Assembly: GCA_965205685.1 (NCBI GenBank)
Contig: OZ242174.1
Coordinates: forward strand, 141,406-205,405
Source: Gammaproteobacteria bacterium
GTDB taxonomy: Bacteria > Pseudomonadota > Gammaproteobacteria > UBA4575
DNA length: 64,000 bases
Reading direction: 5' to 3'
Shown here: positions 24,286-44,871 of the stretch, piece after piece
Numbering within the stretch: position 1 is the stretch's first letter
Layout of the letters: every line of letters starts with the position of its first letter
The notes under the pieces: model-generated
What the model saw: the letters and a program-made list of their open reading frames with translations, nothing else
Databases searched by the model: none
Told to the model about the DNA's origin: nothing
Position numbers and translations under genes: made by a program

Positions 24286-24326
24286 GCTTGTTCTCACACC
24301 AAGTTGCTAATAGACAGAACTTTACT

Positions 24327-25535: not shown

Positions 25536-25579
25536 AGCTGCTTCCTTGAATTGATTGCAAAAGGATAATCTAATCCATA

Positions 25580-25616
25580 TTGTAATACAATTAACAGATA
25601 AATATTTGTATTACAA
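25580..25616. promoter_or_regulatory. Perfect 11-bp inverted repeat (TTGTAATACAA-N15-TTGTATTACAA) in the divergent MTase/helicase promoter region: candidate operator
   Basis: Seen in the 244-bp AT-rich intergenic region between the MTase start (25535) and the helicase start (25779). Confidence 0.4.
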
Positions 25617-25778
25617 ATACACCAGCTACTCGATATCCGCTCCTTTCATACGGCATGTATTTCTCAGAAACACTTAAGTGATATCTTTTAGATAGTATGT
25701 CCTCCAGCAATAGGGTTATTAGAAAGTATGGTCATAGGCAGAAGATTTTCTTGAGCTACCCTCATAAGAGTCAGCGCT

Positions 25779-26972: not shown

Positions 26973-27760
26973 CTTTGCTCATTCGCCATAGTCGAATTTT
27001 TGAACAAATTTACTACAACAACGAACCTCACTTCTCAGACATCGTGAAAGTGGAGCTGGCAAAAGTACTACCAAAATTTTCAATTCTGGGATTCTCACCA
27101 TATATCCTCGGTGATGAGGGGCGACGACGGAGACCAGACTTGGCGCTAATAGACCGAAACTACAGCATGTGGGTAGTAGTTGAAGTAGAGCTGGAGAACC
27201 ACTCGCTTGAACACCATGTTTTGCCTCAAGTTCAGACATTTGCAACAGGACACTACGACGAGACGCATGCAGAATTGTTACATAATAAAGATCCAACACT
27301 AAATATCACGAAATTAAAAAACCTTATTAAATACTGCCCACCTGTAATTTCAGTGATTGTAAATTCAAATTCGGTTCTAAAAAAAGGATGGCAAATTCTT
27401 GAATCTGACTATTCAGCTTACCTTACTTTTTTAGAATCATTTCGTGCTGAAGATGGTGATGTAGTTTTCTCGATCTCTGGTTACCTACCCACTCCACAAC
27501 CCTGCCACCTTATTAAGCTTAGAAAACATGGACTAATGAATGCCCTAGTCTGCAACAGCCCCGAGAATGTACCGGCAGACCTAGTTGATGTAATGCAAAT
27601 ATACTTTGATCAACGTCCCTACACTTGGCAAATAATTAGAACAAAAGATACGGCAGTATTTCTACCGACAGGTGGATTTACGGTCAGCGATGATCGCAAC
27701 TATGAGATGTTAAGAATCGATGAAGGAAACAAAACGATATATAAATTAATAAAATTGTAG
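26969..27760 (+). CDS. Hypothetical protein, possible degenerate PD-(D/E)xK-like nuclease partner of the helicase
   Basis: ATGA-overlapped with the helicase stop (translational coupling). It contains RRPDLALID...WVVVEVELE, reminiscent of a restriction-endonuclease-like core. This is weak. Confidence 0.35.
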   Translation: MTLLIRHSRIFEQIYYNNEPHFSDIVKVELAKVLPKFSILGFSPYILGDEGRRRRPDLALIDRNYSMWVVVEVELENHSLEHHVLPQVQTFATGHYDETHAELLHNKDPTLNITKLKNLIKYCPPVISVIVNSNSVLKKGWQILESDYSAYLTFLESFRAEDGDVVFSISGYLPTPQPCHLIKLRKHGLMNALVCNSPENVPADLVDVMQIYFDQRPYTWQIIRTKDTAVFLPTGGFTVSDDRNYEMLRIDEGNKTIYKLIKL

Positions 27761-27792
27761 AGATTTAATTGTGAAAATAACTAGGAGGTAAC

Positions 27793-29304
27793 ATGGCATT
27801 AGAGATCAGGTTTGGACATGAAAATTTTGCTAACTATAAGCGACTATCTTACAAATGGTGGTTTGCCTTGGCCGAATTCGTCGATAATTCAACACAGTCC
27901 TACTTCGATCATAGTGAGATACTTAAACCTGTATACGAAAAAGAGAAAGAAAGGTTTTTTGTGAACATTTCCACGGACGAAGATTTTATTCGAGTACGTG
28001 ACAATGCCATGGGCATGGATCTCGAGGACTTACAAAATGCCATGGTAGTTGGCATACCCCCAAAAAATACTAGTGGTCGATCACAATATGGGCTCGGAAT
28101 GAAAACTGCGGCCTGCTGGATCGGGGACAAGTGGAAAATTATAACAACTAAATTAGGTAGCCCATTTGAATACACAGTAAATGTGAATGTAAATGAAGTG
28201 TCAAAAGGGAATATAGTCCCCCCAGTTGATGAGAGAGAGATTTCTTCGGATGATCATTACACTGTTATTGAAATCACAGAGCACCACCGACCATTGCGTG
28301 GGAGAACAATTACAAAAGTCAAAGAGTATCTTGAAAGTATCTACCGAGTAGATATTTCTCTTGGAGAAATGTTACTCCAGTACAACGACCTTGAATTGAA
28401 TTGGAATGGCTTTTCTGACCATGATTTCCTAAAGCGTAAGGATAGTACAGCTTATAGAGAACATTTTATTTTTGAAATTGACACTGAGCCCAAGAAAGTT
28501 GTTGAAGGTTGGGTAGGAGTACTGCAAAAGGGTTCACGTGCTAAGGCTGGATTCTCTATATTTCACCGAAAACGTTTAATCAAAGGTTGGCCGGATAGCT
28601 GGCGTCCTGAGAAAGTTTTTGGAGTTGGTGGAAGGAATGACTTAATCAACCAACGCGTAGTAGGGGAAATAAACCTGGAAGATTTTGAAATTTCCCACAC
28701 TAAGGATGAAATTAACTGGAATGGTCTGGAAGAGGAGCTAGTTGAAGAGGGGTTATTGAAGCGTTGCAAACCGTATATGGAAACAGCTCGAAAAGCTCGA
28801 AAAGGGCAAGCAGTAGACCATGGTCCCACTGATGTCCAAGTGGATGTTGCTGTCCAAACTTTACAGGAAGAGCTTACAGCACCTGAGTTTTTGGAAGCAT
28901 TAGAACTAGAAGAAGTTCTTCCGCCATTGAGCCAAATTAAAGCAAGTAATGAACATATAGTCACTAATGCTTCAAATATTGACCCTGCATTTATAGTAAA
29001 CCTTAGGGATATGAATATTCGTGTCTACATAGACACAATAGGCTCGCCAAACGATCCATATTTTGTTAATCAAGATGTCGATGATGCCTCACTCGTGATA
29101 GTAATCAATAAGCAGCACCCACACTGGCTGATGCTCGAGGGCGAGAATTCCGTGGTGAATTATATGCGGCACTGTGTTTATGATGGGGTTGCTGAGTATC
29201 GCGCCACACGATTAAGTAGAGTTGAGTCAGACTCTGTAAAGAGACTGAAAGATATGTACTTGAGGATCCCCTTCGAAATATTACAGCGTGAAGAGGAAGA
29301 GTAG
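27793..29304 (+). CDS. GHKL-superfamily ATPase (HATPase_c_3 / MORC-like)
   Basis: N-box ALAEFVDNS, G1 box DNAMGMD and G2 box GLGMKTA. 503 aa. It is the last gene of the helicase operon. Confidence 0.6.
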   Translation: MALEIRFGHENFANYKRLSYKWWFALAEFVDNSTQSYFDHSEILKPVYEKEKERFFVNISTDEDFIRVRDNAMGMDLEDLQNAMVVGIPPKNTSGRSQYGLGMKTAACWIGDKWKIITTKLGSPFEYTVNVNVNEVSKGNIVPPVDEREISSDDHYTVIEITEHHRPLRGRTITKVKEYLESIYRVDISLGEMLLQYNDLELNWNGFSDHDFLKRKDSTAYREHFIFEIDTEPKKVVEGWVGVLQKGSRAKAGFSIFHRKRLIKGWPDSWRPEKVFGVGGRNDLINQRVVGEINLEDFEISHTKDEINWNGLEEELVEEGLLKRCKPYMETARKARKGQAVDHGPTDVQVDVAVQTLQEELTAPEFLEALELEEVLPPLSQIKASNEHIVTNASNIDPAFIVNLRDMNIRVYIDTIGSPNDPYFVNQDVDDASLVIVINKQHPHWLMLEGENSVVNYMRHCVYDGVAEYRATRLSRVESDSVKRLKDMYLRIPFEILQREEEE

Positions 29305-29580: not shown

Positions 29581-32102
29581 GTGCATCAAACCTTTAACCA
29601 TGTGTGCCGGTGCTTTACACCGAACAGGCACGAGGATGGCCCTTTGGCTGACAACCCACTAGCTCTGGAAACCGTCACGCGCGATCCGGTCTGCGGGATG
29701 ACCGTCGACCCGCAAGCAGGGAAGCCCTGTTTCGAGCATGACGGGCACATGTATCATTTTTGCCACGATGGTTGCCGCGGCAAGTTCGTGATGGATCCCG
29801 AACCCTATATCAAAGCGGTGGACCCCGTTTGCGGCATGAAGGTCAACCGCGCTACGGCAAGTTTTATCACGAGGCACATGGGTCAGTGCCACTATTTCTG
29901 CTCTGGCCATTGCCTGGATAAGTTCGAGACTGATCCGGACACTTACCTGGAAGGCCGCTTAACAGCAGAACCTGTACCAGAAGGTACACTCTATACCTGC
30001 CCGATGGATCCCGAAATCGTGCAAGAGGAACCGGGTGATTGTCCGATCTGTGGCATGGCACTGGAGCCGATGATGCCCACGGTTGATTCGGGCCCGAATC
30101 CTGAACTCGTCGATTTCAGGCACAGGCTCCTGATCGGCGCGCCCCTGACTCTGGCAGTCTTGCTGCTCGAGATGGGAGGCATGCTGGGGATTCCGTGGAA
30201 TGACTGGTTCGGACCAGCGGCGGTTCGCTGGCTTCAGTTTGTATTGGCCACGCCGGTCGTGGCCTGGGTTGGTCTGCCCTTCTTCAAGCGCGGCTGGTCA
30301 TCCGTGGTCACTGGCAACCTCAACATGTGGACGCTGATCGCCATCGGTACCGGTACAGCCTATGCGTTCAGCGTGGTTTCGCTGATTGCACCGTGGGTTT
30401 TTCCTGCTGACCTAGGAAACGGTCACCCTCCGCCGCTTTATTTCGAGGCAAGTGCAGTCATCCTCATCCTGGTGCTTGTCGGACAGGTGCTGGAACTGAC
30501 AGCCCGCGACCGAACGGGAGATGCGATTCGGGCACTGATGGATCTCTCGCCAAAAACCGTCCGGCTGGTGACGGCTTCGGGTGAGGCAGACGTGCCGCTT
30601 GAAACTATCAAGACAGGAGACCAGCTTCGCGTGCGTCCCGGGGAGGCGGTACCTGTCGATGGCACTGTCACCGAGGGTCACTCATCGGTGGATGAAAGCA
30701 TGCTCACAGGCGAGCCGGTTCCCGTTGAAAAAACCGAGGGCGATTCGATCACTGGCGGCACGCTGAACAAGACGGGCTCGTTCGTGATGCAGGCCAGGGC
30801 TGTAGGCAGCGACACGGTCTTGTCCCGGATCATCGCCATGGTCGCACAGGCACAACGATCGCGGGCACCGATCCAGGCACTGGCCGACAGGGTCGCCTCG
30901 TATTTTGTTCCCGTCGTCATTTCTGTCGCTGTACTGGCCTTTATCGTATGGATGATCTGGGGTCCGGCACCGGCGCTCAGTTACGCCATCGTTTCTGCCG
31001 TCAGCGTCCTCATCATTGCCTGTCCCTGTGCACTCGGGCTCGCCACACCGATGTCCATCATGGTGGCGACAGGACGTGGCGCACAGGCGGGCGTGCTGAT
31101 CCGGGATGCAGAAGCACTGGAACGGTTTGCAAGCGTAGACGCCCTGATCATCGACAAGACGGGCACGCTCACGGAAGGGCGGCCGAGCCTGGCCGATATC
31201 GTGGCGTTCGGTGATGCATCCGAGGACCGGGTGCTCGCACTGGCTGCGGCCCTTGAACGCGGGTCGGAGCATCCGATGGCCGAGGCCATTCTCAGGGCAT
31301 CCCAGGAAAGAAACATCGAACGCCTCACACGACGGGCTTTGATGCGGTGACCGGCAAGGGAGTCAAAGGTCAGGTCAGCGACTTGTCGGTGGCATTTGGC
31401 AACGCGAAGCTGATGGGGGATCTGGGCATCGATGTTTCTGCTGCCCAAACCCAGTTAGCCCAGCTTCAAAATGAAGGCAAGACGGTCATGCTGCTGGCTG
31501 TGGATGGAGTGCTTTGCGGCCTCATCGCCGTGGCAGACCGCATCAAGGAGACCACACCCGGTGCCATCCAAGCTTTGCACAAGGCAGGCCTCAAGATCAT
31601 CATGGCGACCGGGGACAGCCGACAGACTGCCGAGGTGGTCGCTGCCAAGCTCGGGATCGACGAGGTCCGCGCAGAAATATCCCCTGAGGACAAGGCGACA
31701 CTTGTTGCTGAAGTCCGCAACAGGGGGCTTTCGGTTGCGATGGCGGGCGATGGCGTGAACGACGCTCCGGCCCTGGCTGCAGCAGACGTGGGAATCGCCA
31801 TGGGAAGCGGCTCCGATGTAGCTGTAGAGAGTGCCAGCATGACGTTGGTGAAAGGAGATCTACGCGGCATTGTCCGGGCCCGGCTGCTGGCACGTGGAAC
31901 AACGCGCAACATTCGCCAGAATCTATTCTTTGCCTTTGTCTACAACAGCATCGGCGTACCCGTAGCTGCAGGTGTGCTTTTTCCCGTTTTCGGAATCCTG
32001 CTGTCTCCGATGATTGCTGCTGCCGCCATGAGCCTCTCTTCAGTCTCGGTGATTGGCAATGCATTGAGACTGCGCCGAGTCCACTTGTATACTGGTGGCT
32101 GA
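29581..32102 (+). pseudogene. copA: Copper-translocating P1B-type ATPase (CopA family) interrupted by a frameshift near 31320-31350
   Basis: N-terminal YHS/TRASH-like Cys motifs (DPVCGM x2, YTCPMDPEI...CPICGM), CPC and DKTGTLT in the first ORF, and GDGVNDAPAL with the C-terminal TMs in the second ORF (31347-32102). The reading frame switches between ...ERNIE and [12 protein letters not shown]. Confidence 0.7.
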
Positions 32103-32702: not shown

Positions 32703-33515
32703 TTATCCGGCCGTTTTTCTAAACGGCTGCAACAGCAGATGATCCAGCCACAGGTCGCGCGGGGTCCGGAAGTGCTCGATGCCGACTTTCATACCAATGT
32801 GCCCGGCCTGCGGTGAGGCGCGGTAGGTTTTAAACAGGTAGTCCCACCAGGGTACATTGAAGCCGAAATTGCTGTCGGTTTCCTGCCGCACCACCGAGTG
32901 ATGCACCCGGTGCATGTCCGGTGTCACGATAAAATACCGCATGACCCGGTCCACTTTATCCGGGATGCGTATGTTCGCATGGTTGAACAGTGAGCTTGCA
33001 TTCAGCAGCACTTCAAAAGCGATTACAGCCACCACCGGAGCTCCCAGCACAAGCACCGCCGCCATTTTGATTGCCATGGACAGCACGATCTCGATGGGAT
33101 GAAACCGCAAGCCGGTCGTGACGTCCACTTCCAGGTCCGCATGGTGCATGCGGTGCAGTCTCCACAAAAAGTCCACATGGTGAAATACCAGGTGCTGAAA
33201 ATACAGAATCAGGTCCAGCGCCAAGATCGCCACGACCATGGCAAACCATGCTGGCAGGGTCACCTGATTCAGCAAGCCGAGGTCCTGGTCTTGCGCAACG
33301 ATGGCCGTACCCACTGCGGCCAGCGGAATCCCGAGCCGCACGACCAGCCCGTTCAGCACGGTGAGGGCTAGGTTGTTTAGCCAGCGTACACTCCGCGAGT
33401 GGTGCTGGGTGCGGCGTGGAGCCACAAGTTCCCACACCGCGAACACCGCGAACAGGCCTGCAAAGGTCGACAGGCGAACCAGCACTTCGGTATCCATGGA
33501 AAATTCGGTCAACAT
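32703..33515 (-). CDS. Fatty acid hydroxylase / sterol desaturase-family membrane protein
   Basis: Histidine boxes HHVDFLWRLHRMHH and HRVHHS in a polytopic membrane protein. Confidence 0.8.
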   Translation of the reverse strand: MLTEFSMDTEVLVRLSTFAGLFAVFAVWELVAPRRTQHHSRSVRWLNNLALTVLNGLVVRLGIPLAAVGTAIVAQDQDLGLLNQVTLPAWFAMVVAILALDLILYFQHLVFHHVDFLWRLHRMHHADLEVDVTTGLRFHPIEIVLSMAIKMAAVLVLGAPVVAVIAFEVLLNASSLFNHANIRIPDKVDRVMRYFIVTPDMHRVHHSVVRQETDSNFGFNVPWWDYLFKTYRASPQAGHIGMKVGIEHFRTPRDLWLDHLLLQPFRKTAG

Positions 33516-33724: not shown

Positions 33725-34477
33725 ATGACGAGACATGGCTTCCGGTTGCTGTTGGTCTTGATGCTGGGCACATGCCTTGGTGCTTGCAGCACTCCATCTT
33801 CAGAGTCCACATCGAGCCTGCCGGTACCCGAGTCCAGTCCTTCCCGGGAGTCCCAGCATGAAGACCCTCCCCAACCCCCGAATGAACAAACCGAGCAGCA
33901 TCCCCAGGACTCACCCCGCCAGCCGCAGGAAACGATCGATCCCGAGGCAAGGACATCCGATGCCCAAGCCCCTGTTCGTACTGACGATGAGGAAGTCGCC
34001 GTCCTCGACCAGCAACTTGAAGAGGCGTTGGGACGCTATGACGAACAGATCCACAAGGAATTCGAAAAGGCGCAGGCCGAAAGACGGGCACACGGACAAG
34101 AAGTGCCTGCCGGTGCAGGACAAGAGGCGGGATCCGAGCGGGAATCTGCCCACGCAATGGACCCTGCGACCCAGGCAGGAAAGACGTCCGGAGCCGAAGC
34201 ACAAGCCGGCACTCGTTCATCATCGGCTGAGAGCGGAGATCCGGACGATGACTCGAAGGAAAGTGCAGAAGAACGAAAAAACAGGGGGGCTCACAGCGCA
34301 CCGCCGCCGGCTGATATTCCCAGTGGAGACGATGATGATGTCGTTGCCAGGCAACTTCGGGAAGCCGCACAAAAGGAGCGTGATCCCGTGTTGCGCGACA
34401 AGCTTTGGGACGAGTACCGCAAGTACAAGAAGCAGCAGGCGAGCGCGACCTCCTCGCCTGCTGCTGAAGGCGAATGA
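33725..34477 (+). CDS. Lipoprotein with acidic, Pro/Glu/Ser-rich disordered region
   Basis: Signal peptide with lipobox LGAC (MTRHGFRLLLVLMLGTCLGACS). The rest is low-complexity and acidic. First gene of the co-directional operon. Confidence 0.5.
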   Translation: MTRHGFRLLLVLMLGTCLGACSTPSSESTSSLPVPESSPSRESQHEDPPQPPNEQTEQHPQDSPRQPQETIDPEARTSDAQAPVRTDDEEVAVLDQQLEEALGRYDEQIHKEFEKAQAERRAHGQEVPAGAGQEAGSERESAHAMDPATQAGKTSGAEAQAGTRSSSAESGDPDDDSKESAEERKNRGAHSAPPPADIPSGDDDDVVARQLREAAQKERDPVLRDKLWDEYRKYKKQQASATSSPAAEGE

Positions 34478-35646
34478 CCATGAGCAGAACACTCCTGGCC
34501 CCTCTGTGGCTGACCATTGTCCTTTTGACCAGCAGCTGTGCGCTAAACACGGTTCGGGTTTCAGGCGGGGAAGAGATCGAGTCAGAAACTGTACAGCTGC
34601 AGGAAAGTCAGCTTCTGGATGTCGGTGTGCTGTTGTTCGAGGAGGGTGAAATTACCGAGCAGCAGAAACAGGAAAGCATCCACGAGGACATTCGGACAGC
34701 CGAAGCGCGCTACATGGCCTACCACCTGAAAGAGACACTGCAGCGCACCAGTGGCTGGGGTGCCATCCGGGTGCTGCCAGCCACCTCACATATTGCGGAC
34801 GTGGTTGTCCGCAGCACGATCATCACTTCCAACGGCGAACAGCTGCTGCTTGAGGTCCACGTATCGGACAGTACCGGCATCCTGTGGTTTGAGAAAAAGT
34901 ACACGTCCGAGTTGGCCGAACTCGACTACTTCGAGATCGATCCCGGTAATGATGTCTACCAGCACGTCTACAATCGCGTTGCCAACGATATCTACCGCCA
35001 CCGAAAGAAACTGACCGACCGGCAACTGATCCGCATCCGCAACACCTCCGAACTGCGCTATGCCGCCAGCATATCGCCCGATCCGTTCTCCGATTACCTC
35101 GTGTGGGAACAGGGCGGGCAGGTCAAGGTGGCACGCCTGCCAGCCCGGGAGGATCCCATGCTGCAGCGGGTGCGCAAGATCCGCGAGCGCGAGTTTTTGT
35201 TCGTCGATACGATCAACGAGTACTATGCGAATTTCCACAGCGTGATGTACCGGCCCTACACGAACTGGCGCAAATATTACCTGCTGGAAGTCCGGCAAAA
35301 ACGTGCCATCGAACGCCGTGCCACACGAACCAAACTTGCTGCAGCAGCCATCACGCTGGCAGGTCTGCTGCGGGACGCTCCGGGCCTCGTAACCACGGGA
35401 GCCATGCTGTACAAGGATGGCATCGACATCGGCAAGGAAGCCCGGATCCACGACGATGCCATCCGCGAGCTGGGAGATTCCCTCAAGACTGAAGTGCGCC
35501 CGATGGTACTGGATATCCAGGGGCGTACCGTGGAGATCACGGGCACCATTGAAGAACAGTACCGCAAATGGCGGGCGCTGCTGCGCGAGATCTATCTGAA
35601 CGAGACGGGGCTGGCACAGGACGAAAGCGCTCCGGACAGCATTTAA
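34474..35646 (+). CDS. Putative lipoprotein of unknown function
   Basis: N-terminal signal peptide with a Cys (LLTSSCALN). 390 aa. ATGA overlap with the upstream gene. Confidence 0.5.
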   Translation: MTMSRTLLAPLWLTIVLLTSSCALNTVRVSGGEEIESETVQLQESQLLDVGVLLFEEGEITEQQKQESIHEDIRTAEARYMAYHLKETLQRTSGWGAIRVLPATSHIADVVVRSTIITSNGEQLLLEVHVSDSTGILWFEKKYTSELAELDYFEIDPGNDVYQHVYNRVANDIYRHRKKLTDRQLIRIRNTSELRYAASISPDPFSDYLVWEQGGQVKVARLPAREDPMLQRVRKIREREFLFVDTINEYYANFHSVMYRPYTNWRKYYLLEVRQKRAIERRATRTKLAAAAITLAGLLRDAPGLVTTGAMLYKDGIDIGKEARIHDDAIRELGDSLKTEVRPMVLDIQGRTVEITGTIEEQYRKWRALLREIYLNETGLAQDESAPDSI

Positions 35647-35653
35647 TATAGCG

Positions 35654-37198
35654 ATGCGCGAGGACAAGTCCACACCGGTTGAACCGATCGATCCCGCATC
35701 GCTGCGCGCCGCTGGCGCTGATTCCGGCAATCAGCTCTCCAATGCCAACCGGAACGCCCTGCTTGCCCTTGTGTTCGTCGGGCTGGCGGCAGTGGCGGTG
35801 CTGGTGTTCTGGATATTGCCCGGGGTGGTCGACCAGCAACGATCCTCCGGGCCGCTGAACCAGGAACCCCCTGTACCCCTGCACGAGCCTCCCGAGACTT
35901 ACTCCGAGCCGAGCGGTGTACCCGAAGCCCTGGCTGAAATGCCTGCAGGGCTTGCTGAACAGGAGTACGCAGCCCTGAGGCTGCAGGCTGAAACCTTATT
36001 GCTGAGTATGATTGAAAAACAGGACGCCTTGCAGCAGCAAGGGGTCAAGCAGTGGGCAGGCCAGGACTATGCCGATGCGGTTGCGAGTGGGCAGGCCGGG
36101 GATGCGCATTTCCGCAAACAGGATTTCGCCGAGGCGATCCGCCTGTACACTCAGTCGGCGGACGCCCTGCAGGCCCTGCAAAACCGCGTCGATGCAGTGC
36201 TCGACCAGGCACTCTTGCAAGGGGAACAGGCCCTGTTGCAAAATCTGGCCGAGGTTGCAAAACAGCATTTCAGCCTGGCTCTCAGCATCGATTCACACAA
36301 CCGCCGGGCCCTCGAGGGCCTGAAACGGGCTGAAACCCTCGGTGAGCTGTTCGAATTGCTGGAGACGGGCGGTCACTTCGAGGCTGCCAACCGCCTGCAG
36401 GCCTCTGAACAGGCGTACCGGCAGGCCGTCACCCTGGACCCGCTGTCTGCCGAGGCTGCCGCTGCACTGCAGCGCATCACGGAGCGCCTGACCGAGGCGG
36501 AGTTTTCCCGGCAGATGAGCCAGGCGTATGCCCTGCTGCAATCCCACCAGTTCGAAGATGCTCGTGCAGCGTTTCGCAAGGCCCAGGAACTGGTACCCTA
36601 CTCCAAGCGCCCCGCCCAGGGATTGCGCCGAGTCGATGAGGTCGTGCGCGAGGAAAAAATCGCTTCACTGAAAGCTGAAGCATCCCATTTTGAGAAACAG
36701 GAACAATGGTCCCTTGCTGCACAGAGCTGGCAGCAACTGCTGTCGCTGGACCCGCAAGCCCCTCACGCCGGGGAAGCTGCTACCCGAACCCAGTACCGCG
36801 CAGCCTTGCTTTCGAAGCTGGACCATTATCTGGAACATCAAGAGCGCTTGTACTCTACGGACGTATCGGCCGAGGCACAGGCACTGCTGGATGAGATCTC
36901 CGCCCTGGACCACAGCCCGGGCCGTCGCATCCTGCAAAGTGCAGAAGCCCTGCAGGGCGTGCTGGTGCTGGCCCGCCAGCCAGTCAGGATTGCCCTGTAT
37001 TCGGACAACCAGACCGAGGTGACCATTTTCCGGGTCGGCAAGCTCGGGCGCTTCGAACATCAGGACGTTCGGCTCAAGCCGGGCCAGTACACGATCATCG
37101 GCTCGCGGCCCGGCTACCGTGACGTACGAAAAACCCTCCACGTGACCCCGGACATGAAGGCCGAGCGCCTGAGTATTCTATGTGAAGAGACGATCTGA
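35654..37198 (+). CDS. Bitopic membrane protein with TPR-like repeats and C-terminal PEGA-like beta domain
   Basis: N-terminal TM helix (LLALVFVGLAAVAVLVFWILPGV), helical TPR-like repeats, and a C-terminal PEGA-like segment (GQYTIIGSRPGYRDVRKTLHVTP). Confidence 0.45.
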   Translation: MREDKSTPVEPIDPASLRAAGADSGNQLSNANRNALLALVFVGLAAVAVLVFWILPGVVDQQRSSGPLNQEPPVPLHEPPETYSEPSGVPEALAEMPAGLAEQEYAALRLQAETLLLSMIEKQDALQQQGVKQWAGQDYADAVASGQAGDAHFRKQDFAEAIRLYTQSADALQALQNRVDAVLDQALLQGEQALLQNLAEVAKQHFSLALSIDSHNRRALEGLKRAETLGELFELLETGGHFEAANRLQASEQAYRQAVTLDPLSAEAAAALQRITERLTEAEFSRQMSQAYALLQSHQFEDARAAFRKAQELVPYSKRPAQGLRRVDEVVREEKIASLKAEASHFEKQEQWSLAAQSWQQLLSLDPQAPHAGEAATRTQYRAALLSKLDHYLEHQERLYSTDVSAEAQALLDEISALDHSPGRRILQSAEALQGVLVLARQPVRIALYSDNQTEVTIFRVGKLGRFEHQDVRLKPGQYTIIGSRPGYRDVRKTLHVTPDMKAERLSILCEETI

Positions 37199-39253
37199 CC
37201 CTGCAGTCCCGCACGGCGAGGTGATCCGGCCCGTGGCGCTGCCCGAGACGGCCTACCGAAAATCGAAGCGCCCGGGCCGTCGCCTTCTGACCCTGACCGG
37301 GGCGCTCATCTTTCTCTCCCTGGTTCTGCTCCTCTTCCACGTGCTGACATCCAAAAGCCTGCAGATCGAGATTGACCCGCCGGCGGACTCGATCAGCCTG
37401 CGGGGCATGCCTTGGCCCGTCCATGTGCAGGGACGTTACCTGGTGCGCCCTGGCAGCTACAGGCTGCAGGCAGGGCGGGCTGGATACCATCCCTTGGAGC
37501 GGGATATCCAGGTCGGCACACAGGCCTCCCAGACGCTCACGTTCTCCCTGCTCAAACTCCCGGGCTACCTGGACATCACCAGCGCCCCCGAACACGGGGT
37601 ACACATTCAGATTGACGGCACATCCTTCGGCAGCACTCCGATCAGGCGCCTTCAACTTGCAGCCGGAACCTATGTCCTGCAGGCGACAGCCGATCGTTAC
37701 CTGCCCTACACCACACAGCTGGTCATCGAGGGCGAGCACAGGCAACAGGATCTTGAAATCCAGTTGCAGCCCGGTTGGGCGGAAGTGTCCATCGATTCAC
37801 AGCCCCCGCATGCGGAGGCTTGGCTGGACGGGACCCGCCAGGGACACACGCCCCTGAGACTGGAACTGATGGCCGGGGAATACCGTCTTGACCTGCACCA
37901 CCCGGACTACCTGCCCTACACCGTGGATTTTCTGGTGGTCGCTGGCCAGCCGCTGGAGCTGCCGCCGGCACAGTTGCAGGCCGGCACCGCTCATGTGAGG
38001 ATTACCAGCGTTCCTCCCGGTGCACGCGTCACCATTGCAGACCTCGACAAAGGCCAAACCCCGTTAAGTCTCGCGCTGGCTCCGAATGCCGAGCACCACA
38101 TTACCCTGACCAAGCCTGGCTACCGTCCCGGCCACCAAATCCTCAAGACCGAGCCGGGACAACAGAAAACCGTCACTTTGCATTTGGAAGCCCTGCTGGG
38201 CACCGTAGTCGTGCAGGCCACCCCTGAGGATGCCGAGGTGCTCGTCGAGGGCAAAACCGCAGGCCGCGGCAAACTCCGCCTTGAGCTGCCGAGCGCACCG
38301 CAGCGCCTTGAGGTGCGAAAACCCGGATATCTCAGCCACACGCAATCCATCACTCCGCTCGTGGACACCCCGCAGGTCATCGCCGTCACGTTGAAACCGG
38401 CTGCAGCCCGCAGCAGATATGACCCGCCCGCCCGCATCACCACCCACCAGGGCGAGACCCTTATCCGCCTGGACGGCGGTACATTTACCATGGGTGCCCC
38501 GCGGCGTGAACAGGGGCGGCGCACCAACGAAACCCAGCACAGCGTCACACTGCAACGACCGTTCTACATGGCCACCCGCGAGGTCACCAATGCCCAGTTC
38601 AATGCTTTCATGCCTTCCCATCTCTCCGGCAACTACCGTGGCCATGACCTGTCCGCCCCCGACCTTCCGGTCGTCAACCTCACCTGGGCGGATGCGGTGC
38701 GCTACTGCAACTGGCTGAGCGAGCGCGAAGGGCTGGAGCCCGTGTACGAGGAAAAAAACGGAACCTGGGTGGCCAAGACACCCCTCCCCGCCGGCTACCG
38801 CCTGCCCACGGAGAGCGAATGGGAATGGGCAGCCCGCTGGGGCCCCGGCGGGAAGCTGGCGAAATATGCCTGGGGTCATGAGTACCCGCCGGTGGAGGTG
38901 ACCGGGAATTACGCGGACCATGCTGCCAGCGGCCTGCTTGAGGACATCATCGACGGCTATGACGACGGATTTGCGGTGGCCGCACCGGTGGGAAGCTTCA
39001 GGCCCAATCCGCTGGGCCTGTTCGACCTGGACGGCAACGTCGCCGAATGGTGCCACGACTACCACAGCATCTATCCAGCCCTGAGCGAGAAGACCTATGT
39101 AGACCCGGCGGCCCTACCACGGGAACCAAGCACGTCATCCGTGGTGCTTCCTGGATGCGCAGCACCCTCAGCAGCACTCGACTCAGCTACAGGGATCAGG
39201 ATAATAACCGGCATGTTGATGTTGGTTTCCGTATTGCCCGATACCTGGATTAG
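37182..39253 (+). CDS. Membrane-anchored PEGA-repeat protein with C-terminal FGE-sulfatase (SUMF1-like) domain; reading frame shifts near 39100-39130
   Basis: One TM helix, about five PEGA repeats (PGY...TP pattern), then FGE-domain motifs (GGTFTMG, RPFYMATREVTNAQFNAFM, YRLPTESEWEWAARWG, NPLGLFDLDGNVAEWCHD). The canonical FGE end (HVIRGASWMRS...VGFRIARYLD) is in a different frame, 39047-39253. Confidence 0.65.
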
Positions 39254-39259
39254 TGGGGT

Positions 39260-39496
39260 ATGAGACTTTGCGCGGCGTTGTTGCTGGCCATGCTGGTTCT
39301 TCCTCTTGCAGCCACCCCCGAGCCCACAGAAGAGATGCCTGAGAACACCGCAACGCCTGAAGCCCACCCGGGTGAAGACGCTGCTCGCAGGGCAGCTGGG
39401 AAACGCGGCACACGACGCGCCCCGCCCCTGGAGGAGTTCGTACCCAGCGAAGAAGTCTCTGCCGACAAGCCCGTGAGTTTTCCAACGGACATCTGA
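39260..39496 (+). CDS. Small secreted protein (signal peptide), hypothetical
   Basis: 78 aa with an N-terminal signal peptide (MRLCAALLLAMLVLPLAAT). Tightly packed between operon genes. Confidence 0.35.
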   Translation: MRLCAALLLAMLVLPLAATPEPTEEMPENTATPEAHPGEDAARRAAGKRGTRRAPPLEEFVPSEEVSADKPVSFPTDI

Positions 39497-39501
39497 GCAC
39501 G

Positions 39502-40299
39502 ATGAGAAAACCGTTTTCCCCCGAATTCACCTACCAGATTTTCAGCCTGTTGGTGATTATGATCGTCGTGCATGCGGCGTACGTGGCCGTTATTCGCCCG
39601 ACCGCCGAAGCTGAACTCGAGCAGCAGGCGGTGCAGATCAATCTTGACCGGGACTACGTGCCGAAACGCTCGGTGTACGTGCTGGTTCGCGACTACGAAC
39701 AGGAAGCCTGTTTCATCCTGATGTTCTGGGCCCTGGTGATCATGGGCTACAAGACCAGCCACCTGTTGCGCGAGCGCGACATGCTCGACATGGACCTGCT
39801 GCACGCCAAGGAGGGGATCCGGTTTTTGCCCCAGGACATGCAAAAGCTCAACCGCCAGATCCAGTCCCTGCCCGAAGAACAGCAGGGCTATCTGCTGCCG
39901 CGTGCCCTGCAGGTCGCCCTGCACCGCTTCAACTCCACCCGTAACATCCAGGACGTCTCCTCGGCCACCCGCGGTGTATGTGAATCCGAATCCGAGCGCC
40001 TCGACTCCGAACTTTCCATCATCCGCTACATCACCTGGGCGATTCCCTCCATCGGGTTTTTGGGTACGGTGCGCGGTATCGGTGATGCGCTGGGGCAGGC
40101 GCACAAGGCAGTGGAAGGCAACATCGCCGGGGTCACGGAGAGCCTGGGAGTGGCCTTCAACTCCACCCTGATCGCCCTGTGCATCAGCATCGTGCTGATG
40201 TTCATCGTGTACCAGCTACAGCTTTTGCAGGAACGGCTGATCCTGGACACCCAGAACTACTGCAATCACAACCTGATCCGCCATCTTCAGGCGGAATGA
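39502..40299 (+). CDS. MotA/TolQ/ExbB-family proton-channel protein
   Basis: 265 aa with three TM helices and the family-signature C-terminal region (IRYITWAIPSIGFLGTVRGIGDALGQA...SLGVAFNSTLIALCISIVLMF). Confidence 0.7.
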   Translation: MRKPFSPEFTYQIFSLLVIMIVVHAAYVAVIRPTAEAELEQQAVQINLDRDYVPKRSVYVLVRDYEQEACFILMFWALVIMGYKTSHLLRERDMLDMDLLHAKEGIRFLPQDMQKLNRQIQSLPEEQQGYLLPRALQVALHRFNSTRNIQDVSSATRGVCESESERLDSELSIIRYITWAIPSIGFLGTVRGIGDALGQAHKAVEGNIAGVTESLGVAFNSTLIALCISIVLMFIVYQLQLLQERLILDTQNYCNHNLIRHLQAE

Positions 40300-40314
40300 A
40301 GGGGAGCCGCCTGA

Positions 40315-41685
40315 GTGTCCACGGTTGTCATCGATCTGTACGACAGCGGAATCCTGATCAGCGACGGAAAACGCATCCTCGCCAACTGCCCGTCCTGTGC
40401 CCTGGTTGAAACCGAGACCTCCATCCTGACAGGCAAGCAGGCCGAGCAGCAAATACACCTGCGACCGCAGGAAATCAGCACGGGGTTTTGGGCGGACCTT
40501 GCCGGGCAAAGCACGACCCGGCATGCCGTCAGCCATGCCGAGATCGCATTCAGGCACATGCAGTTTGCCTGGAGCCTGCTGGACCGACAGGACCACGATG
40601 CCATCCTTGCGGTGTCCGGCGCGCTGCGCAAGCAGGAACTGGGGCTGGTGCTCGGCATCTGCGAAAAACTCGGCATTGCGGTCGTTGGCATCGTCAACAA
40701 GGCGGTGCTCGCGGTCCCCGGCCCCGTTCCGAAGACCCGGCTGGTGTGGCTGGCCGTGCTGCAGCAGAGCACTATACTCACCCTGGTCTCGCAGGACCGC
40801 AAGCAGGTGTCCGCCACCCGCCCGGGAAGAGTCATTGAACACGGGCTGCAGTCCCTAATCCAGGCACAAGCCAAGTGGATCGCCGCGGCCTTTGTCCGGG
40901 AAACACGCTTCGACCCCCTGCAAAAGGGTGAAGACGAACAACGTCTGTATGAAAGACTTCCGCACTGGCTGGCGACCCTGCAGTCCATCGAGTCCGTCGG
41001 CTGCGAACTGCACTCCGATGGACAGGGCCACCGCATACAGCTGCACAGAAAGGACGTCCTCGAGATCAACCGGGCTGCCTTCGAGGAGATGGCGATTTCC
41101 CTGAGTGAGCTGCTCCCAGACCACAAGGTCACGCTCGTGTGCTCCCCGACCTGCAACCAGGTGTTTGGTCTGAACGAATTCCTGAAGGACCTGCCGGGGT
41201 GCGCCATGCTGGGCACGGACCCGACCCGCATTGCCCGCCAGGCCCTGCGCTACCGCGAACAGATCAGCAGCGGCGATGCGACCGTGCATTACACGACCGC
41301 GCTGGCCTGGGACAAATCCACCCGTCCCGAGTTGCTGGAACCCAATCCCGGGTTGCTGGCCAGCCTGCGCAACTGTCCCACCCACTTGCTGATCGGCAAC
41401 CGTGCCTGGCCACTGGGCCCGAAACAGGAACTGCGCCTGACGAAGGACCGCCATGAGATTCACCTGGAACTCGATCCGGTTTGCAATGACCGCGGCATTT
41501 GCCGGATCCAGAAAAAAGGCATGCGCATCGAGTTGCGCCACCTCAGGGAGTACAAGATCCGTCTCAATGACCGGCTCCTGAGCGAGCCCCAGCCGATCCA
41601 GTCCGGAGACCGCCTGCGTATTGACGGGTACCGCGGGACCGTACACTTCATCCAGGTCCAGGAACATGAAGCGTCGCACGATTAA
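40315..41685 (+). CDS. Cytoplasmic protein with possible actin/Hsp70-like N-terminal fold and FHA-like C-terminal domain
   Basis: The N-terminus VVIDLYDSGILISDG looks like an ASKHA phosphate-1 loop. The C-terminal 100 aa (LLIGNRAW...HEIHLEL...IRLNDRLL...GDRLRIDG) follow the FHA pattern. No TM segment. Both assignments are tentative. Confidence 0.4.
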   Translation: MSTVVIDLYDSGILISDGKRILANCPSCALVETETSILTGKQAEQQIHLRPQEISTGFWADLAGQSTTRHAVSHAEIAFRHMQFAWSLLDRQDHDAILAVSGALRKQELGLVLGICEKLGIAVVGIVNKAVLAVPGPVPKTRLVWLAVLQQSTILTLVSQDRKQVSATRPGRVIEHGLQSLIQAQAKWIAAAFVRETRFDPLQKGEDEQRLYERLPHWLATLQSIESVGCELHSDGQGHRIQLHRKDVLEINRAAFEEMAISLSELLPDHKVTLVCSPTCNQVFGLNEFLKDLPGCAMLGTDPTRIARQALRYREQISSGDATVHYTTALAWDKSTRPELLEPNPGLLASLRNCPTHLLIGNRAWPLGPKQELRLTKDRHEIHLELDPVCNDRGICRIQKKGMRIELRHLREYKIRLNDRLLSEPQPIQSGDRLRIDGYRGTVHFIQVQEHEASHD

Positions 41686-42757
41686 CGTATTCAGCCTGTC
41701 CTTCCTGGACGTGATGTTTTGCGGTTTCGGGGCGGTCATCCTGTTTTTCATGATCATCAATGCTGATTCGCAGGCGCGTCGCGGCATGGTCAATGCCACC
41801 GCGCAGGATGAAGTGCAGGAACTGCAGGCCCAGGTCACCGAGGCCGAGCGCTCGCTGGCGGAACTGCAAAACTCCCTGCAGATGCTCGAAACGCGCCGTC
41901 TGCGGGCACAGGGACGCGCTGCAAGTATCCTTGAGGACATTACCCTGCACACCTCGCAACTATCCCGACAGCAACAGGAGACCCGTGCCAGGATGCAAGC
42001 CGTCGATGCGCTCAAGGCGGAACTGAAATCCCTGGAGGAGGCGCACCGGCGTCTTGAGGCAGGCGCCTTGCAGGACGAGACCCCGGGGGCGTACCTGCGC
42101 GCATTCGACGGTCACGGGCAGCGCCAGTACCTGACCGGCCTCAAGATGGACGGTGAGCGCATCCTGATCCTGGTGGACAGCTCGGCCAGCATGCTGGCCG
42201 ATCGCATCATCAACGTGCTTCGCTTTCGAAACCTTCCACCGGATGAACGGGTGCGCGCGGCCAAGTGGCAGCAGGTGCTGCACACGGTCGACTGGATCAC
42301 CACACGAATCCCGCCCACCAGCCTGTTCCAGATCCATGCCTTCAATGAGACCAGCGAACCGCTCTACCAAGCTTCGGACGCGGTCTGGCTGGATGCCAGC
42401 GATCCCCGGCACCTGGATCTTGCGGTGGAGGGCCTGTACGCGCGTGCGCCGGGCGGCGGCACCAGCCTGTACCAGGCCTTCAGGGGGATCGCGCAGCTGG
42501 ATCCGCCCCCGGACACCATCTACCTGCTGACGGACGGGCTCCCCACACAGGGTCGCTCGAAACCCTGGCGCACCAAGGTGTCCGCGCAAGCGCGCAAGAA
42601 GCTGTTCGATGATGCACTGAAGATCCTGCCTGGCGGGATTCCCGTCAATACCATCCTGTTCCACATGGAAGGTGACCCGCAGGCCTCCAGTGAATACTGG
42701 AAGCTGGCGAGCACCACCCGGGGAGCCTTTTTCAGCCCCTCCCGGGACTGGCCCTGA
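41666..42757 (+). CDS. ExbD/TolR-like N-terminal TM anchor fused to coiled coil and vWA domain (paralog 1)
   Basis: The N-terminus MKRRTINVFSLSFLDVMFCGFGAVILFFMI mirrors the ExbD/TolR TM region. A long coiled coil follows, then a vWA with MIDAS-like residues (ILVDSSASM...LTDG). Confidence 0.6.
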   Translation: MKRRTINVFSLSFLDVMFCGFGAVILFFMIINADSQARRGMVNATAQDEVQELQAQVTEAERSLAELQNSLQMLETRRLRAQGRAASILEDITLHTSQLSRQQQETRARMQAVDALKAELKSLEEAHRRLEAGALQDETPGAYLRAFDGHGQRQYLTGLKMDGERILILVDSSASMLADRIINVLRFRNLPPDERVRAAKWQQVLHTVDWITTRIPPTSLFQIHAFNETSEPLYQASDAVWLDASDPRHLDLAVEGLYARAPGGGTSLYQAFRGIAQLDPPPDTIYLLTDGLPTQGRSKPWRTKVSAQARKKLFDDALKILPGGIPVNTILFHMEGDPQASSEYWKLASTTRGAFFSPSRDWP

Positions 42758-42760
42758 AAC

Positions 42761-43768
42761 ATGAAACCGCGTCGCAGCATCGAGATTTTCAGCCTGTCCT
42801 TCCTGGACTGCATATGCTGCGGCTTCGGTGCGCTGATCCTGCTGCTGGTGCTGTCGAAAACGGCCGAGCCGGTGATCTTCGAGCAATACAGCGAAGACCT
42901 CGACCGGCATGCCACGGACCTGCAGATGCAGTTGTCCGAACTGCACGGGCAAAACCACGCACTGAACCGCGAACGGATCAGACAAAAGCACCAGGTGACC
43001 CGCGAGATAGAAAAAATCGCGCACCTGCAGGATGAGCTGTCAATCGTGCAAGGCCGGTATTCGACCGCGCAAGGCGAAGCGGCACTGCAGAACACGATCG
43101 AGGGCCAGCTGGCCCGCGCACGCCAGACGTTGAGCGAAGAGATGCGCCGCCTGCAGGCTAGGGACCTGCGGATCCGGCCATCACAGGATGCCACGATTGC
43201 CGGCATCCCGGTGGACAGCGAGTACATCATTTTCATCATCGACACTTCGGGCAGCATGCTGAGCTACGGCTGGGAACTGGCCGAGCAAAAGCTGGCCGAG
43301 GTGCTGGATGCCTACCCGACGGTCAAGGGCATGCAGGTCATGAACGACATGGGCGAGTACATGTTCCGCCAGTATGCCGGGCGCTGGATCCCGGACACTC
43401 CGGCACGGCGCAAGGCGGTGCTTGAGCGGCTGCGCACCTGGCAGCCGTTCAGTAACAGCAGTCCGGTCGAGGGCATCACGGCCGCCATCCGAACGTTTCA
43501 TGCAGACGACAAGAAAATCAGCCTGTACGTGTTCGGTGACGAATTCACCGGCGCCTCCATCCAGTCCGTGCTTCGCGAGGTGAATGCGATCAACCGCAAG
43601 GACCTGCACGGTGCGCGACGGGTGCGCATCCATGCCGTTGGTTTTCCGATCCAGTTCGCCCGGCTTGAGGACGAGCAAGTGACCGGCGTGCGCTTCGCCA
43701 CCCTGATGCGCGCTCTGTGCGAACAAAACGAGGGCACCTTCATCGGGCTGGCCGACTTCGCCCCCTAG
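42761..43768 (+). CDS. ExbD/TolR-like N-terminal TM anchor fused to coiled coil and vWA domain (paralog 2)
   Basis: The N-terminus MKPRRSIEIFSLSFLDCICCGFGALILLLVL, then a coiled coil, then a vWA (IIFIIDTSGSM...). It is clearly paralogous to the upstream gene. Confidence 0.6.
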   Translation: MKPRRSIEIFSLSFLDCICCGFGALILLLVLSKTAEPVIFEQYSEDLDRHATDLQMQLSELHGQNHALNRERIRQKHQVTREIEKIAHLQDELSIVQGRYSTAQGEAALQNTIEGQLARARQTLSEEMRRLQARDLRIRPSQDATIAGIPVDSEYIIFIIDTSGSMLSYGWELAEQKLAEVLDAYPTVKGMQVMNDMGEYMFRQYAGRWIPDTPARRKAVLERLRTWQPFSNSSPVEGITAAIRTFHADDKKISLYVFGDEFTGASIQSVLREVNAINRKDLHGARRVRIHAVGFPIQFARLEDEQVTGVRFATLMRALCEQNEGTFIGLADFAP

Positions 43769-43971: not shown

Positions 43972-44871
43972 TTAGTTCTTCACGCTCTTCAGGATCACAT
44001 CGGCCAGCATGCCGAATTCCTGCTTGCGGACACTGGATTTTCTCCAGGCCAGACCGATTTCCCGATACGCATGATCCTTCAGGTCCTGCGTGATCACCTG
44101 GGTATTGTCCAGCAGGCCTCCATCGATCGCCATCTGCGGAATGAAGGACACCCCGAGGTCACTGTTCACCATCTGCACCAGGCTGTACAGGCCGCTGGCC
44201 GAGAACTTGTTGGTCTCCTCCAGCCGGGTCAGGTTGCATGCGCTCAATGCGTGCTCGCGCAGGCAGTGCCCATCCTCCAGCAGCAGGATCGAGCCCTGGT
44301 TCAACTTGTTGGGCGTAAAGTCCTGAGGGTCAATCAGCCGCGTCCCTTGCTTGTACGCAAGCTTGAACGCATCCGTAAACAGGGACACCGTGTCCGTGTT
44401 GGTAAGCTCGACGGGCAGGGCCAGCAACAGGATGTCGAGTTCCCCTTCCAGCAACAGGGCATGAATTTTCTTGGTCTGTTCCTCCTTGAGGTACAACTCC
44501 AGCTTCGGGAAGTGTTTGCGAATCTCCGGCAGGATCTTCGGCAGCAGGAACGGGGCAATGGTCGGGATCACGCCCATTTTTAAAGGCCCGGTCAGGGGCT
44601 GTTGCACGGACCGTGCGATATCGACGATGCCCTCCAGGTCGAACAGGGCATGACGGGCCTGCTCGGCGACCAGCTTTCCCACCGAGGTGAAGGTCACGCT
44701 GCGGCTGGTGCGATCCACCAGGGAAACATTCAACTGCCTCTCAAGCTCCTTGATGGCTACACTGAAGGCGGACTGGGTGACAAAGCAGGCCTCTGCGGCC
44801 TTGCCGAAATGCAGGTATTTCTCCAGCGTCACCAGATAACGCAGCTGCTTGACGGTGGGCAGGTTGATCAT
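43972..44871 (-). CDS. oxyR: LysR-family peroxide-sensing regulator OxyR
   Basis: 299 aa with an OxyR-like HTH (LRYLVTLEKYLHFGKAAEACFVTQSAFS) and the redox-Cys region LEDGHCLREHALSACN, which matches the OxyR C199/C208 context. Confidence 0.75.
   Translation of the reverse strand: MINLPTVKQLRYLVTLEKYLHFGKAAEACFVTQSAFSVAIKELERQLNVSLVDRTSRSVTFTSVGKLVAEQARHALFDLEGIVDIARSVQQPLTGPLKMGVIPTIAPFLLPKILPEIRKHFPKLELYLKEEQTKKIHALLLEGELDILLLALPVELTNTDTVSLFTDAFKLAYKQGTRLIDPQDFTPNKLNQGSILLLEDGHCLREHALSACNLTRLEETNKFSASGLYSLVQMVNSDLGVSFIPQMAIDGGLLDNTQVITQDLKDHAYREIGLAWRKSSVRKQEFGMLADVILKSVKN

Follow-up and report, generated by a model that had tools for sequence, protein, structure and literature searches.

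A nine-gene locus pairing a MotA/TolQ-type channel with two vWA proteins: a candidate proton-driven envelope motor with a variable kinase-FHA layer

Proton motors of the 5:2 type power flagella, TonB-dependent uptake, Tol-Pal envelope integrity, gliding, type IX secretion, and Zorya defense, and each new set of partners found with them has revealed another way of delivering the energy of the inner membrane to the outer envelope. Here, we describe a block of nine genes, designated g1 to g9, within a 64,000-nucleotide (nt) stretch of contig OZ242174.1 (positions 141,406 to 205,405; GenBank assembly GCA_965205685.1) from a gammaproteobacterium of the lineage UBA4575; this whole stretch is referred to as the window. 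The block encodes a channel subunit of the MotA/TolQ/ExbB family (g6) and a pair of paralogous transmembrane (TM) proteins carrying von Willebrand factor A (vWA) domains (g8 and g9). Its best-supported reading, which we regard as fairly probable, is that of an envelope motor of the 5:2 type driven by the proton-motive force (PMF), in which g8 and g9 would take the place of ExbD, TolR, or MotB.

The most similar class described so far is that of PMC12204202 (Mol Biol Evol 2025, section 8, Fig. 4c-d), in which TolQ-like genes are tightly linked to pairs of vWA genes whose products bear an Asp residue in a trans-pore helix. In that class, exemplified by Idiomarina loihiensis, the vWA genes occur predominantly in heterologous pairs, the trans-pore helix is TolR/ExbD-like, and AlphaFold 3 (AF3) models place the conserved Asp in coordination with a ring of threonines; no phenotype was reported. 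The present locus shares with it a tolQ/motA-like gene without a neighboring tolR, exbD, or motB, conserved pore threonines, and a heterologous vWA pair whose Asp helix lacks the SHLS/His motif of TolA and TonB. The original prediction, made from the sequence of the window, had put the system forward as a candidate undescribed one, but its core had already been proposed in silico and modelled with AF3 in PMC12204202, where the motor model was reached independently. The text of that paper covers the motor triad, whereas g1-g5, g7, the covariation of kinase and FHA domain, and the variants lacking the kinase or g7 are not discussed there. What is new beyond it is the full nine-gene module, the kinase-FHA covariation with its three natural variants, the predicted folds of g7 and g2 together with the non-catalytic nature of the FGE-like domain of g4, and the occurrence in the window of a form that is kinase-less and FHA-decayed and yet still constrained.

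The module would add one more such set of partners and, should the more specific machine tentatively put forward below prove real, would constitute a new functional branch beside Ton, Tol, Mot, Agl-Glt, GldLM, and Zorya. It is widespread (hundreds of metagenome loci), is retained in small symbiont genomes, and has a clean architecture comprising a putative Asp/Thr proton path, metal ion-dependent adhesion site (MIDAS) motifs, and a stalk of fixed length. Moreover, clades differ in whether they have the kinase/FHA layer, a decayed form of it, or none, a natural experiment that sets the core machine apart from its regulation.

Channel, paired vWA proteins, and their conserved neighborhood

The assignment of g6 to the MotA/TolQ/ExbB family, which had been made in the original prediction, was borne out by a Pfam match to PF01618 (MotA_ExbB) with 52.2 bits against a cutoff of 22.9 (E 6.8e-14). 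In an alignment with TolQ and ExbB from Escherichia coli and with four orthologues, T189, located in the motif PSIGFLGT(189)VRGIG, and T222 were invariant and matched T145/T178 of TolQ and T148/T181 of ExbB, and the P-x-x-G-x-x-G-T-V-x-G-I motif was kept. Judging from hydropathy, g6 probably adopts a MotA-like topology with four TM helices, despite which it scored best against TolQ among the NCBIfam models. No ExbD or OmpA domain was found in g1-g9 by Pfam, and tblastn with ExbD and TolR from E. coli detected such a gene neither in the window nor among the 18 related loci obtained first.

The products of g8 and g9 are paralogs (29% identity, E 1e-14 by BLASTP) of identical architecture, as had been foreseen. 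Behind a short basic N-tail, both possess a TM helix with the near-invariant motif FSLSFLDxxxCGFGA and no His, the Asp of which did not vary in either paralog in any lineage sampled. In g8, where the helix reads FSLSFLD(15)VMFCGFGA, this residue is D15 (codon 41708-41710), and in g9 it is D16 (42806-42808). The MIDAS of g8 consists of D171-x-S-x-S (42176-42190) plus T266 and D290; that of g9 is D161-T-S-G-S (43241-43255), with the downstream Asp kept and FSNSSPVEG where g8 has Thr. These residues are invariant within both the g8 and the g9 family. The window copies themselves matched VWA_2 below threshold (3.5e-4 for g8 and 9.6e-4 for g9), and homologs of g8 were above threshold on both VWA_2 and VWA. 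The length of the g8 family is fixed at 362-364 residues across 45-100% identity, as would be expected of a stalk spanning a set distance, and its C-terminal DWP (42746-42754) is invariant.

In summary of the comparison with ExbB-ExbD, TolQ-TolR, and MotA-MotB, the likeness lies in a PF01618 channel with two lumen threonines and in partners with a basic N-tail and a single TM helix bearing an Asp of the essential type. In contrast to ExbD, TolR, and MotB, g8 and g9 have neither an ExbD/TolR periplasmic domain nor an OmpA-like peptidoglycan-binding domain and carry a coiled coil and a MIDAS vWA domain instead. They also differ from the known 5:2 motors in being two different partners rather than a homodimer, and the module has no TonB/TolA-like transducer.

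To define the unit, related loci were collected by a scan of genome contigs and by a scan of metagenomes, giving 98 in total. The former used a single sequence and reached close relatives only, which was compensated by the latter with its alignment of 27 sequences; the metagenome scan confirmed at least 585 stretches (585/600 among the matches listed). The open reading frames (ORFs) of the loci were searched with the proteins of the window and with three distant orthologue sets. The sampled loci represent the closest part of the family (~45-95% identity) and are phylogenetically non-independent. Wherever the contig was long enough, the order g1-g2-g3-g4-g5-g6-g7-g8-g9 was found on one strand. 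Among the loci with enough flank, g6 was present in 64/64, g9 followed g8 in 74/74, and g4, g3, g2, and g1 were present in 41/41, 36/36, 32/32, and 30/30, respectively; the corresponding figures were 56/71 for g7 and 50/61 for g5, which is short and weakly detectable. The MotA-like gene and the vWA pair thus co-occur outside the source genome, from Gammaproteobacteria to Acidobacteriota, and the pair always accompanies the channel. Genes beyond g1-g9 differ between lineages and are of the housekeeping type, and we therefore regard the nine genes as the unit.

Named carriers include Gammaproteobacteria and metagenome-assembled genomes (MAGs) of Acidobacteriota/Vicinamibacteria. The closest relatives (82-95% identity in g8) are gammaproteobacterial or Thiotrichales MAGs, and slightly more distant ones (68-82%) include complete chromosomes of ~1.9-2.1 Mb; an origin from sponges is suggested by some bin names. 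Of 1.84 billion cluster representatives, 480 belonged to the g8/g9 family at E<=1e-30, a number rising to 1289 at the more permissive E<=1e-10; tblastn of g8 against the PLSDB plasmids gave no match. All nine genes are under purifying selection in the lineage of the window, the ratios of nonsynonymous to synonymous substitution rates (dN/dS) against three relatives (L006, L008, and L010) being 0.09-0.28 for g1-g4 and g6-g9 and 0.22-0.52 for g5.

Kinase-FHA layer and candidate envelope partners

Fold prediction supported the earlier suggestion that g7 combines ASKHA-like and FHA-like domains, assigning it an Hsp70/actin-fold domain followed by a C-terminus of the FHA fold. It does not retain the classic phosphate-2 (DxGGGT) and adenosine (GG) motifs, even the phosphate-2 Asp being lost in the window, and g7 may thus represent a pseudo-ATPase adaptor like PilM or FtsA. 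It differs from the PilM, FtsA, and Hsp70 nucleotide-binding-domain families in this loss and in its fusion to an FHA domain, which is not a feature of those families. The original prediction had also seen in g7 a cytoplasmic FHA reader. The window copy is not a competent reader of phosphothreonine: its pocket reads NDRGICR and LREYKIRLND, as compared with SRxHC and HSxxG(T/S)FLN in orthologues from kinase-bearing loci, so that SRxH has become DRGI and S..GT/S..N has become L..YK..N, with the fold and the alignment retained. No Pfam FHA match was obtained for g7 in the window.

The kinase in question resides in g3. In two orthologues (L001, from an Acidobacteriota MAG, and L003), the g3 protein is 654-661 residues long and starts with a Ser/Thr kinase domain (Pkinase 7e-37), and in another locus (L017) the kinase is encoded by an ORF of its own immediately next to the TPR gene. 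The g3 of the window starts 35 residues ahead of its TM helix and matches solely residues 423-652 of the L001 kinase protein, corresponding to the periplasmic part, and the kinase domain is missing. Comparison of the loci revealed three architectures. In architecture A, a kinase is accompanied by a g7 with a canonical FHA domain (SRxH[C/F] and S..G[T/S]..N), as was the case in 13/13 kinase-bearing loci; in architecture B, which includes the window, the kinase is absent and the g7 pocket is decayed; and in architecture C neither the kinase nor g7 is present, and g6 abuts g8. A canonical FHA domain was found in 0/23 loci with a visibly kinase-less g3, and a neighbor-joining tree of g8 placed the kinase-less states in at least three separate clades. 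There is good comparative evidence that the FHA domain of g7 would read phosphothreonine written by the g3 kinase, and, likewise on good comparative evidence, the kinase-FHA layer appears to be accessory to the core. The dN/dS of g7 was 0.09-0.14, and that of its FHA-like part 0.10-0.18. As g7 is still constrained without the kinase, it probably has a kinase-independent role, plausibly a structural one. In three metagenome loci (L061, L073, and L064), extra ORFs resembling Ser/Thr kinases lie downstream of g9, and two of these loci have a decayed g7 FHA domain.

A further cytoplasmic FHA-like domain occurs at the N-terminus of most g4 orthologues and is missing in the window and its nearest relatives. 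It matched the g7 FHA domain with a hhalign probability of 93% (E 3e-7) and FHA domains in the PDB with E ~1e-3. Within the kinase-less symbiont clade, this domain is present in L010-L013 and deleted in the window and L005-L009, and the comparison shows a stepwise loss of cytoplasmic signaling parts.

On the envelope side, g4 matched PEGA (Pfam, 7e-44, in 4 stretches) and the FGE-sulfatase domain (6e-41). In catalytic FGE/SUMF1 proteins, the Cys pair is located in the C-terminal GGS(Y/W)xC...C motif. The corresponding motif of g4, RG(A/S)SWMxSxxxxxRLSYR, contained no conserved Cys in 18/18 orthologues inspected; catalytic FGE activity of g4 was thus ruled out by the missing Cys pair across the family, and the FGE-like domain is expected to be a binding or structural module. 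As compared with its close relatives L005/L006, the window copy of g4 has a 1-nt deletion near 39110, by which its last ~47-50 residues as read (39104-39263) are out of frame; the conserved frame (...HVIRGASWMRS...RIARYLD*) ends at ~39253. Since the shifted frame is still conserved, the lesion would be either very recent or an assembly indel.

The g3 protein matched TPR_2 (Pfam, 1.1e-10) and, weakly, PEGA (0.064). Signal peptides with lipobox cysteines were read from the translations and hydropathy of g1 and g2. A structural model of g2 showed an N-terminal alpha/beta domain of the type found in PelC, CsgG, TolB-N, PqiC, and flagellar outer-ring lipoproteins, followed by a long helical hairpin, and with moderate confidence its predicted fold resembles that of outer-membrane ring lipoproteins (PelC/CsgG/FlgP-like). 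In g1, which had no Pfam or NCBIfam match, the motif DDD(I/V)VARQLREAAxxExDPxLRxKLWxEYRxYK (34300-34420) is conserved across phyla, the remainder being unconserved or disordered. The g5 protein is conserved solely in its C-terminal ~20 residues (39436-39496), FxP(S/T)Ex(I/V)xxDxx(V/I)(S/A)FPxDI-COOH. Both FPxDI-COOH of g5 and DWP-COOH of g8 are invariant in the lineages sampled, and the g1 helix is found in all or nearly all of them. It is tempting to speculate that the terminal motifs of g1, g5, and g8 could be docking peptides for TPR or vWA/MIDAS modules.

Proposed trans-envelope machine and its alternatives

On the basis of these features, we propose that the products of the nine genes form a single machine spanning the envelope. 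The g6 proton channel, presumably a pentamer, would be its engine, in which a g8-g9 heterodimer replaces the plug dimer of ExbD, TolR, or MotB, giving the 5:2 assembly that we infer. Each paralog would enter the channel with its N-terminal Asp helix and reach into the periplasm by a coiled-coil stalk of constant length (~110 residues), at the end of which a metal-dependent (MIDAS) vWA domain would serve for binding, and proton flow would turn or pull the stalk against periplasmic and outer-membrane partners. Candidates for the latter are g3 (TPR/PEGA-like) and g4 (four PEGA repeats and a non-catalytic FGE-like domain), as putative scaffold or ligand-binding proteins anchored in the inner membrane, the lipoproteins g1 and g2 (the latter with its predicted ring-forming fold), and g5, whose conserved C-terminal peptide resembles a docking ligand. 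On the cytoplasmic side, the Hsp70/actin-fold g7 would serve as an adaptor, the ancestral FHA domain of which would have read phosphothreonine from the Ser/Thr kinase fused to g3. The lineage of the window (sponge-associated gammaproteobacterial MAGs of ~2 Mb) has lost the kinase and the FHA pocket as well as the FHA-like N-domain of g4, and with these losses the motor here is presumably constitutive or otherwise regulated. The output is probably an envelope process, with outer-membrane tethering or remodelling, surface adhesion or gliding/motility, and polymer export as candidates. A more specific version, namely an uncharacterized class of proton-driven machine in which plug subunits with vWA "hands" act on a g2 ring and a cage of PEGA, FGE, and TPR domains, with an FHA clamp ancestrally under kinase control, is put forward tentatively, as somewhat less than an even prospect.

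Several points weigh against the motor reading. The match of g6, g8, and g9 to every stated feature of the PMC12204202 class is a match by description. Glu176 of ExbB is not conserved in g6 according to the alignment with TolQ and ExbB. A profile of the 40 N-terminal positions of g8/g9, searched against all PDB chains, returned no ExbD, TolR, MotB, or ZorB. In hhalign, the Asp of g8/g9 fell in register with D25 of ExbD and D23 of TolR (F-x-D-V-M/L), with a non-significant E of 0.27. Statistical homology of the TM helix to ExbD, TolR, or MotB is thus not supported, and the resemblance would be one of motif, register, and synteny; of the earlier claim of an ExbD-like N-terminal helix, the Asp motif and its register stood, and homology at the profile level did not. 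The periplasmic location proposed for the vWA domains follows from a single argument, the positive-inside rule. Finally, the window copy of g4 is frameshifted. NDUFB4, which appeared as a PDB match of the N-terminal profile, was rejected as a chance similarity in CGFG, and phmmer searches of g7 and g8 against the PDB gave nothing or coiled-coil noise.

The claim that the locus is not of the Ton, Tol, Mot, Agl, Zorya, or Bat type held up in the comparisons by Pfam, NCBIfam, and PADLOC. With Agl-Glt (AglRQS, GltG, CglB; PMC11761067, PMC9946355) the module shares a MotA/TolQ-type motor accompanied by TPR proteins and lipoproteins, an FHA-TM helix-periplasmic protein (GltG, predicted to dock under the AglR pentamer on the cytoplasmic face of the motor; compare the g4 orthologues), an actin-fold partner (MreB; compare g7), and a vWA domain as the business end. 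It differs in having no TolR homologs of the AglQ/S type, no TonB-like domains of GltG/J, and no GltA/B/H/K barrels, in carrying the vWA domain on the plug subunits instead of an outer-membrane lipoprotein, and in consisting of nine genes as compared with ~17. With neither ExbD/TolR nor TonB_C nor outer-membrane barrel domains detected by Pfam and NCBIfam, membership was rejected, and Agl-Glt is regarded as a thematic analogue alone. The type IX secretion machinery (GldKLMN/PorKLMN) likewise couples a 5:2 motor to a non-catalytic envelope protein of the FGE-sulfatase fold, and GldK was the top NCBIfam match of the g4 FGE domain (1.8e-27). Membership was nevertheless rejected, since g4 reached 96.7 bits against a TIGR03525 cutoff of 350 and GldL, GldM, and GldN are absent; moreover, unlike the lipoprotein GldK, g4 has a TM helix and carries PEGA repeats. 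No AAA or DUF58 domain was found in the operon or in orthologous loci, by which Bat/MoxR-vWA was rejected.

The tight kinase-FHA covariation could alternatively point to a transmembrane sensory or signaling complex, in which the TPR, PEGA, FGE-like, and vWA domains on the periplasmic side would detect a ligand in the envelope, or damage to it, and relay this via the g3 kinase to the g7 FHA domain, and the MotA-like/vWA unit would be an ion-conducting or PMF-sensing transducer. FGE-like domains without the catalytic Cys pair are common extracytoplasmic sensor modules of bacterial kinases, and the lack of this pair in g4 and the cytoplasmic FHA-like domain on most g4 orthologues are in line with such a role. 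An analogy is offered by the threonine-phosphorylation pathway of the type VI secretion system (T6SS; PpkA-Fha1-PppA, TagQRST), in which a TM Ser/Thr kinase, an FHA reader, lipoproteins, and a periplasmic vWA domain (on PpkA) control an envelope machine. Membership in this pathway was rejected, since the module contains neither T6SS genes nor a PP2C phosphatase; its vWA domains also reside on separate Asp-TM proteins, and the window has no kinase. Against the signaling explanation, the kinase, the canonical FHA domain, and even g7 are absent in whole clades, with g1-g6, g8, and g9 intact and under purifying selection, and no transcription factor, cyclase, effector, or other output domain is conserved in the module. 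Being dispensable, the kinase, FHA domain, and g7 would form an accessory signaling layer and not the core, and we consider signaling an unlikely primary function.

Returning to the motor reading, two further explanations have to be set against it. A defense system like Zorya, in which the MotA-like/plug complex would detect perturbation of the envelope and trigger an antiphage response, might be suggested by a weak match of g6 to ZorA in PADLOC (E 2e-4), confined to the MotA domain, and by a low-GC island of restriction-modification/defense type lying ~4 kb upstream. However, ZorB-G were not found in PADLOC, which gave no other family match beyond coiled-coil noise, and g6, with 265 residues, has no tail, by which Zorya membership was rejected. 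Nor does the module contain an effector gene (nuclease, helicase, or NTPase), and the GC content of the operon equals the genome background. Together with the fixed nine-gene unit across many uncultured lineages, its retention, at dN/dS values far below 1, in symbiont genomes of ~2 Mb, and its varying housekeeping neighbors, these results make defense highly improbable. The second is that the window locus is a decaying, non-functional remnant, for which the frameshift in g4, the loss of the kinase, of the FHA motifs, and of the g4 N-domain, and a second split gene nearby in a reduced genome of the symbiont type could be cited. Yet the kinase-less architecture is common to a whole clade with intact ORFs (L005-L013), the low dN/dS values given above, including that of g7, were obtained against these relatives, and the conservation of the shifted frame past the g4 lesion fits a very recent event or an assembly indel. 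Decay is accordingly judged improbable, though less remote than defense, and the PMF-driven motor remains the reading that we favor.

Gene layout and surroundings of the locus

As summarized in Table 1, nine co-directional ORFs lie head-to-tail and fill the whole block. The original prediction had counted ten genes, whereas its own listing also held nine entries; its view of one co-directional operon was confirmed by the ORFs and by the synteny in related loci, which delineate a single conserved operon-like unit. The junctions from g1 to g9 are, in order, -4, +7, -17, -4, +5, +15, -20, and +3 nt. The ATGA overlap of g4 and g5 is an artefact of the 1-nt indel in g4. A consensus promoter/terminator scan of the locus gave counts at background and was uninformative.

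Table 1. Genes of the module and neighboring features in the window
Feature	Position	Strand	Description
Module, g1-g9	33725-43768	+	Nine co-directional ORFs
g1	33725-34477	+	Lipoprotein; signal peptide and LGAC lipobox, long acidic disordered region, conserved C-terminal helix motif
g2	34474-35646	+	Probable lipoprotein, 390 residues; Cys22 invariant
g3	35654-37198	+	Short cytoplasmic tail, TM 36-54, periplasmic TPR repeats, C-terminal PEGA/CarboxypepD_reg-like beta domain
g4	37182-39263 (as read)	+	N-in TM protein (TM 36-54), four or more PEGA repeats, FGE-sulfatase-like domain
g5	39260-39496	+	Secreted protein, 78 residues; cleavable signal peptide (read from translation and hydropathy)
g6	39502-40299	+	MotA/TolQ/ExbB-family channel subunit, 265 residues
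g7	40315-41685	+	Predicted cytoplasmic Hsp70-NBD/actin-fold (ASKHA) domain (~1-340) and C-terminal FHA-fold domain
g8	41666-42757	+	Basic N-tail, Asp-bearing TM helix, coiled coil of ~110 residues, MIDAS vWA domain, C-terminal DWP
g9	42761-43768	+	Paralog of g8 with identical architecture
Upstream flank	32703-33515	-	Fatty-acid hydroxylase gene
Downstream flank	43972-44871	-	LysR gene
Split Cu-ATPase gene	29581-32102		Cu/heavy-metal P-type ATPase (YHS, HMBD, E1-E2_ATPase, then HAD hydrolase)
Low-GC island	23416-29304		GC 0.40-0.45 as compared with ~0.60

The genes flanking the module are unrelated to it and lie on the opposite strand. In one UBA1148 proteobacterial locus (L017, 11626-12492), a protein combining DUF456 with an OmpA-family (peptidoglycan-binding) domain is encoded directly downstream of g9, an arrangement absent beside the module from the other loci with inspected flanks. 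Upstream of the module in the window, the gene for a Cu/heavy-metal P-type ATPase is broken at 31347-31350 into two ORFs that overlap, the second apparent frameshift within 8 kb, which hints at assembly indels or at pseudogenization in a reduced genome. The low-GC island located outside the operon encodes a DUF4238 protein, an N6/N4 DNA methylase (- strand), a helicase of the ResIII/DEAD type, an unannotated protein of 270 residues, and a HATPase_c_3 protein, and resembles a restriction-modification or defense island acquired by horizontal transfer.

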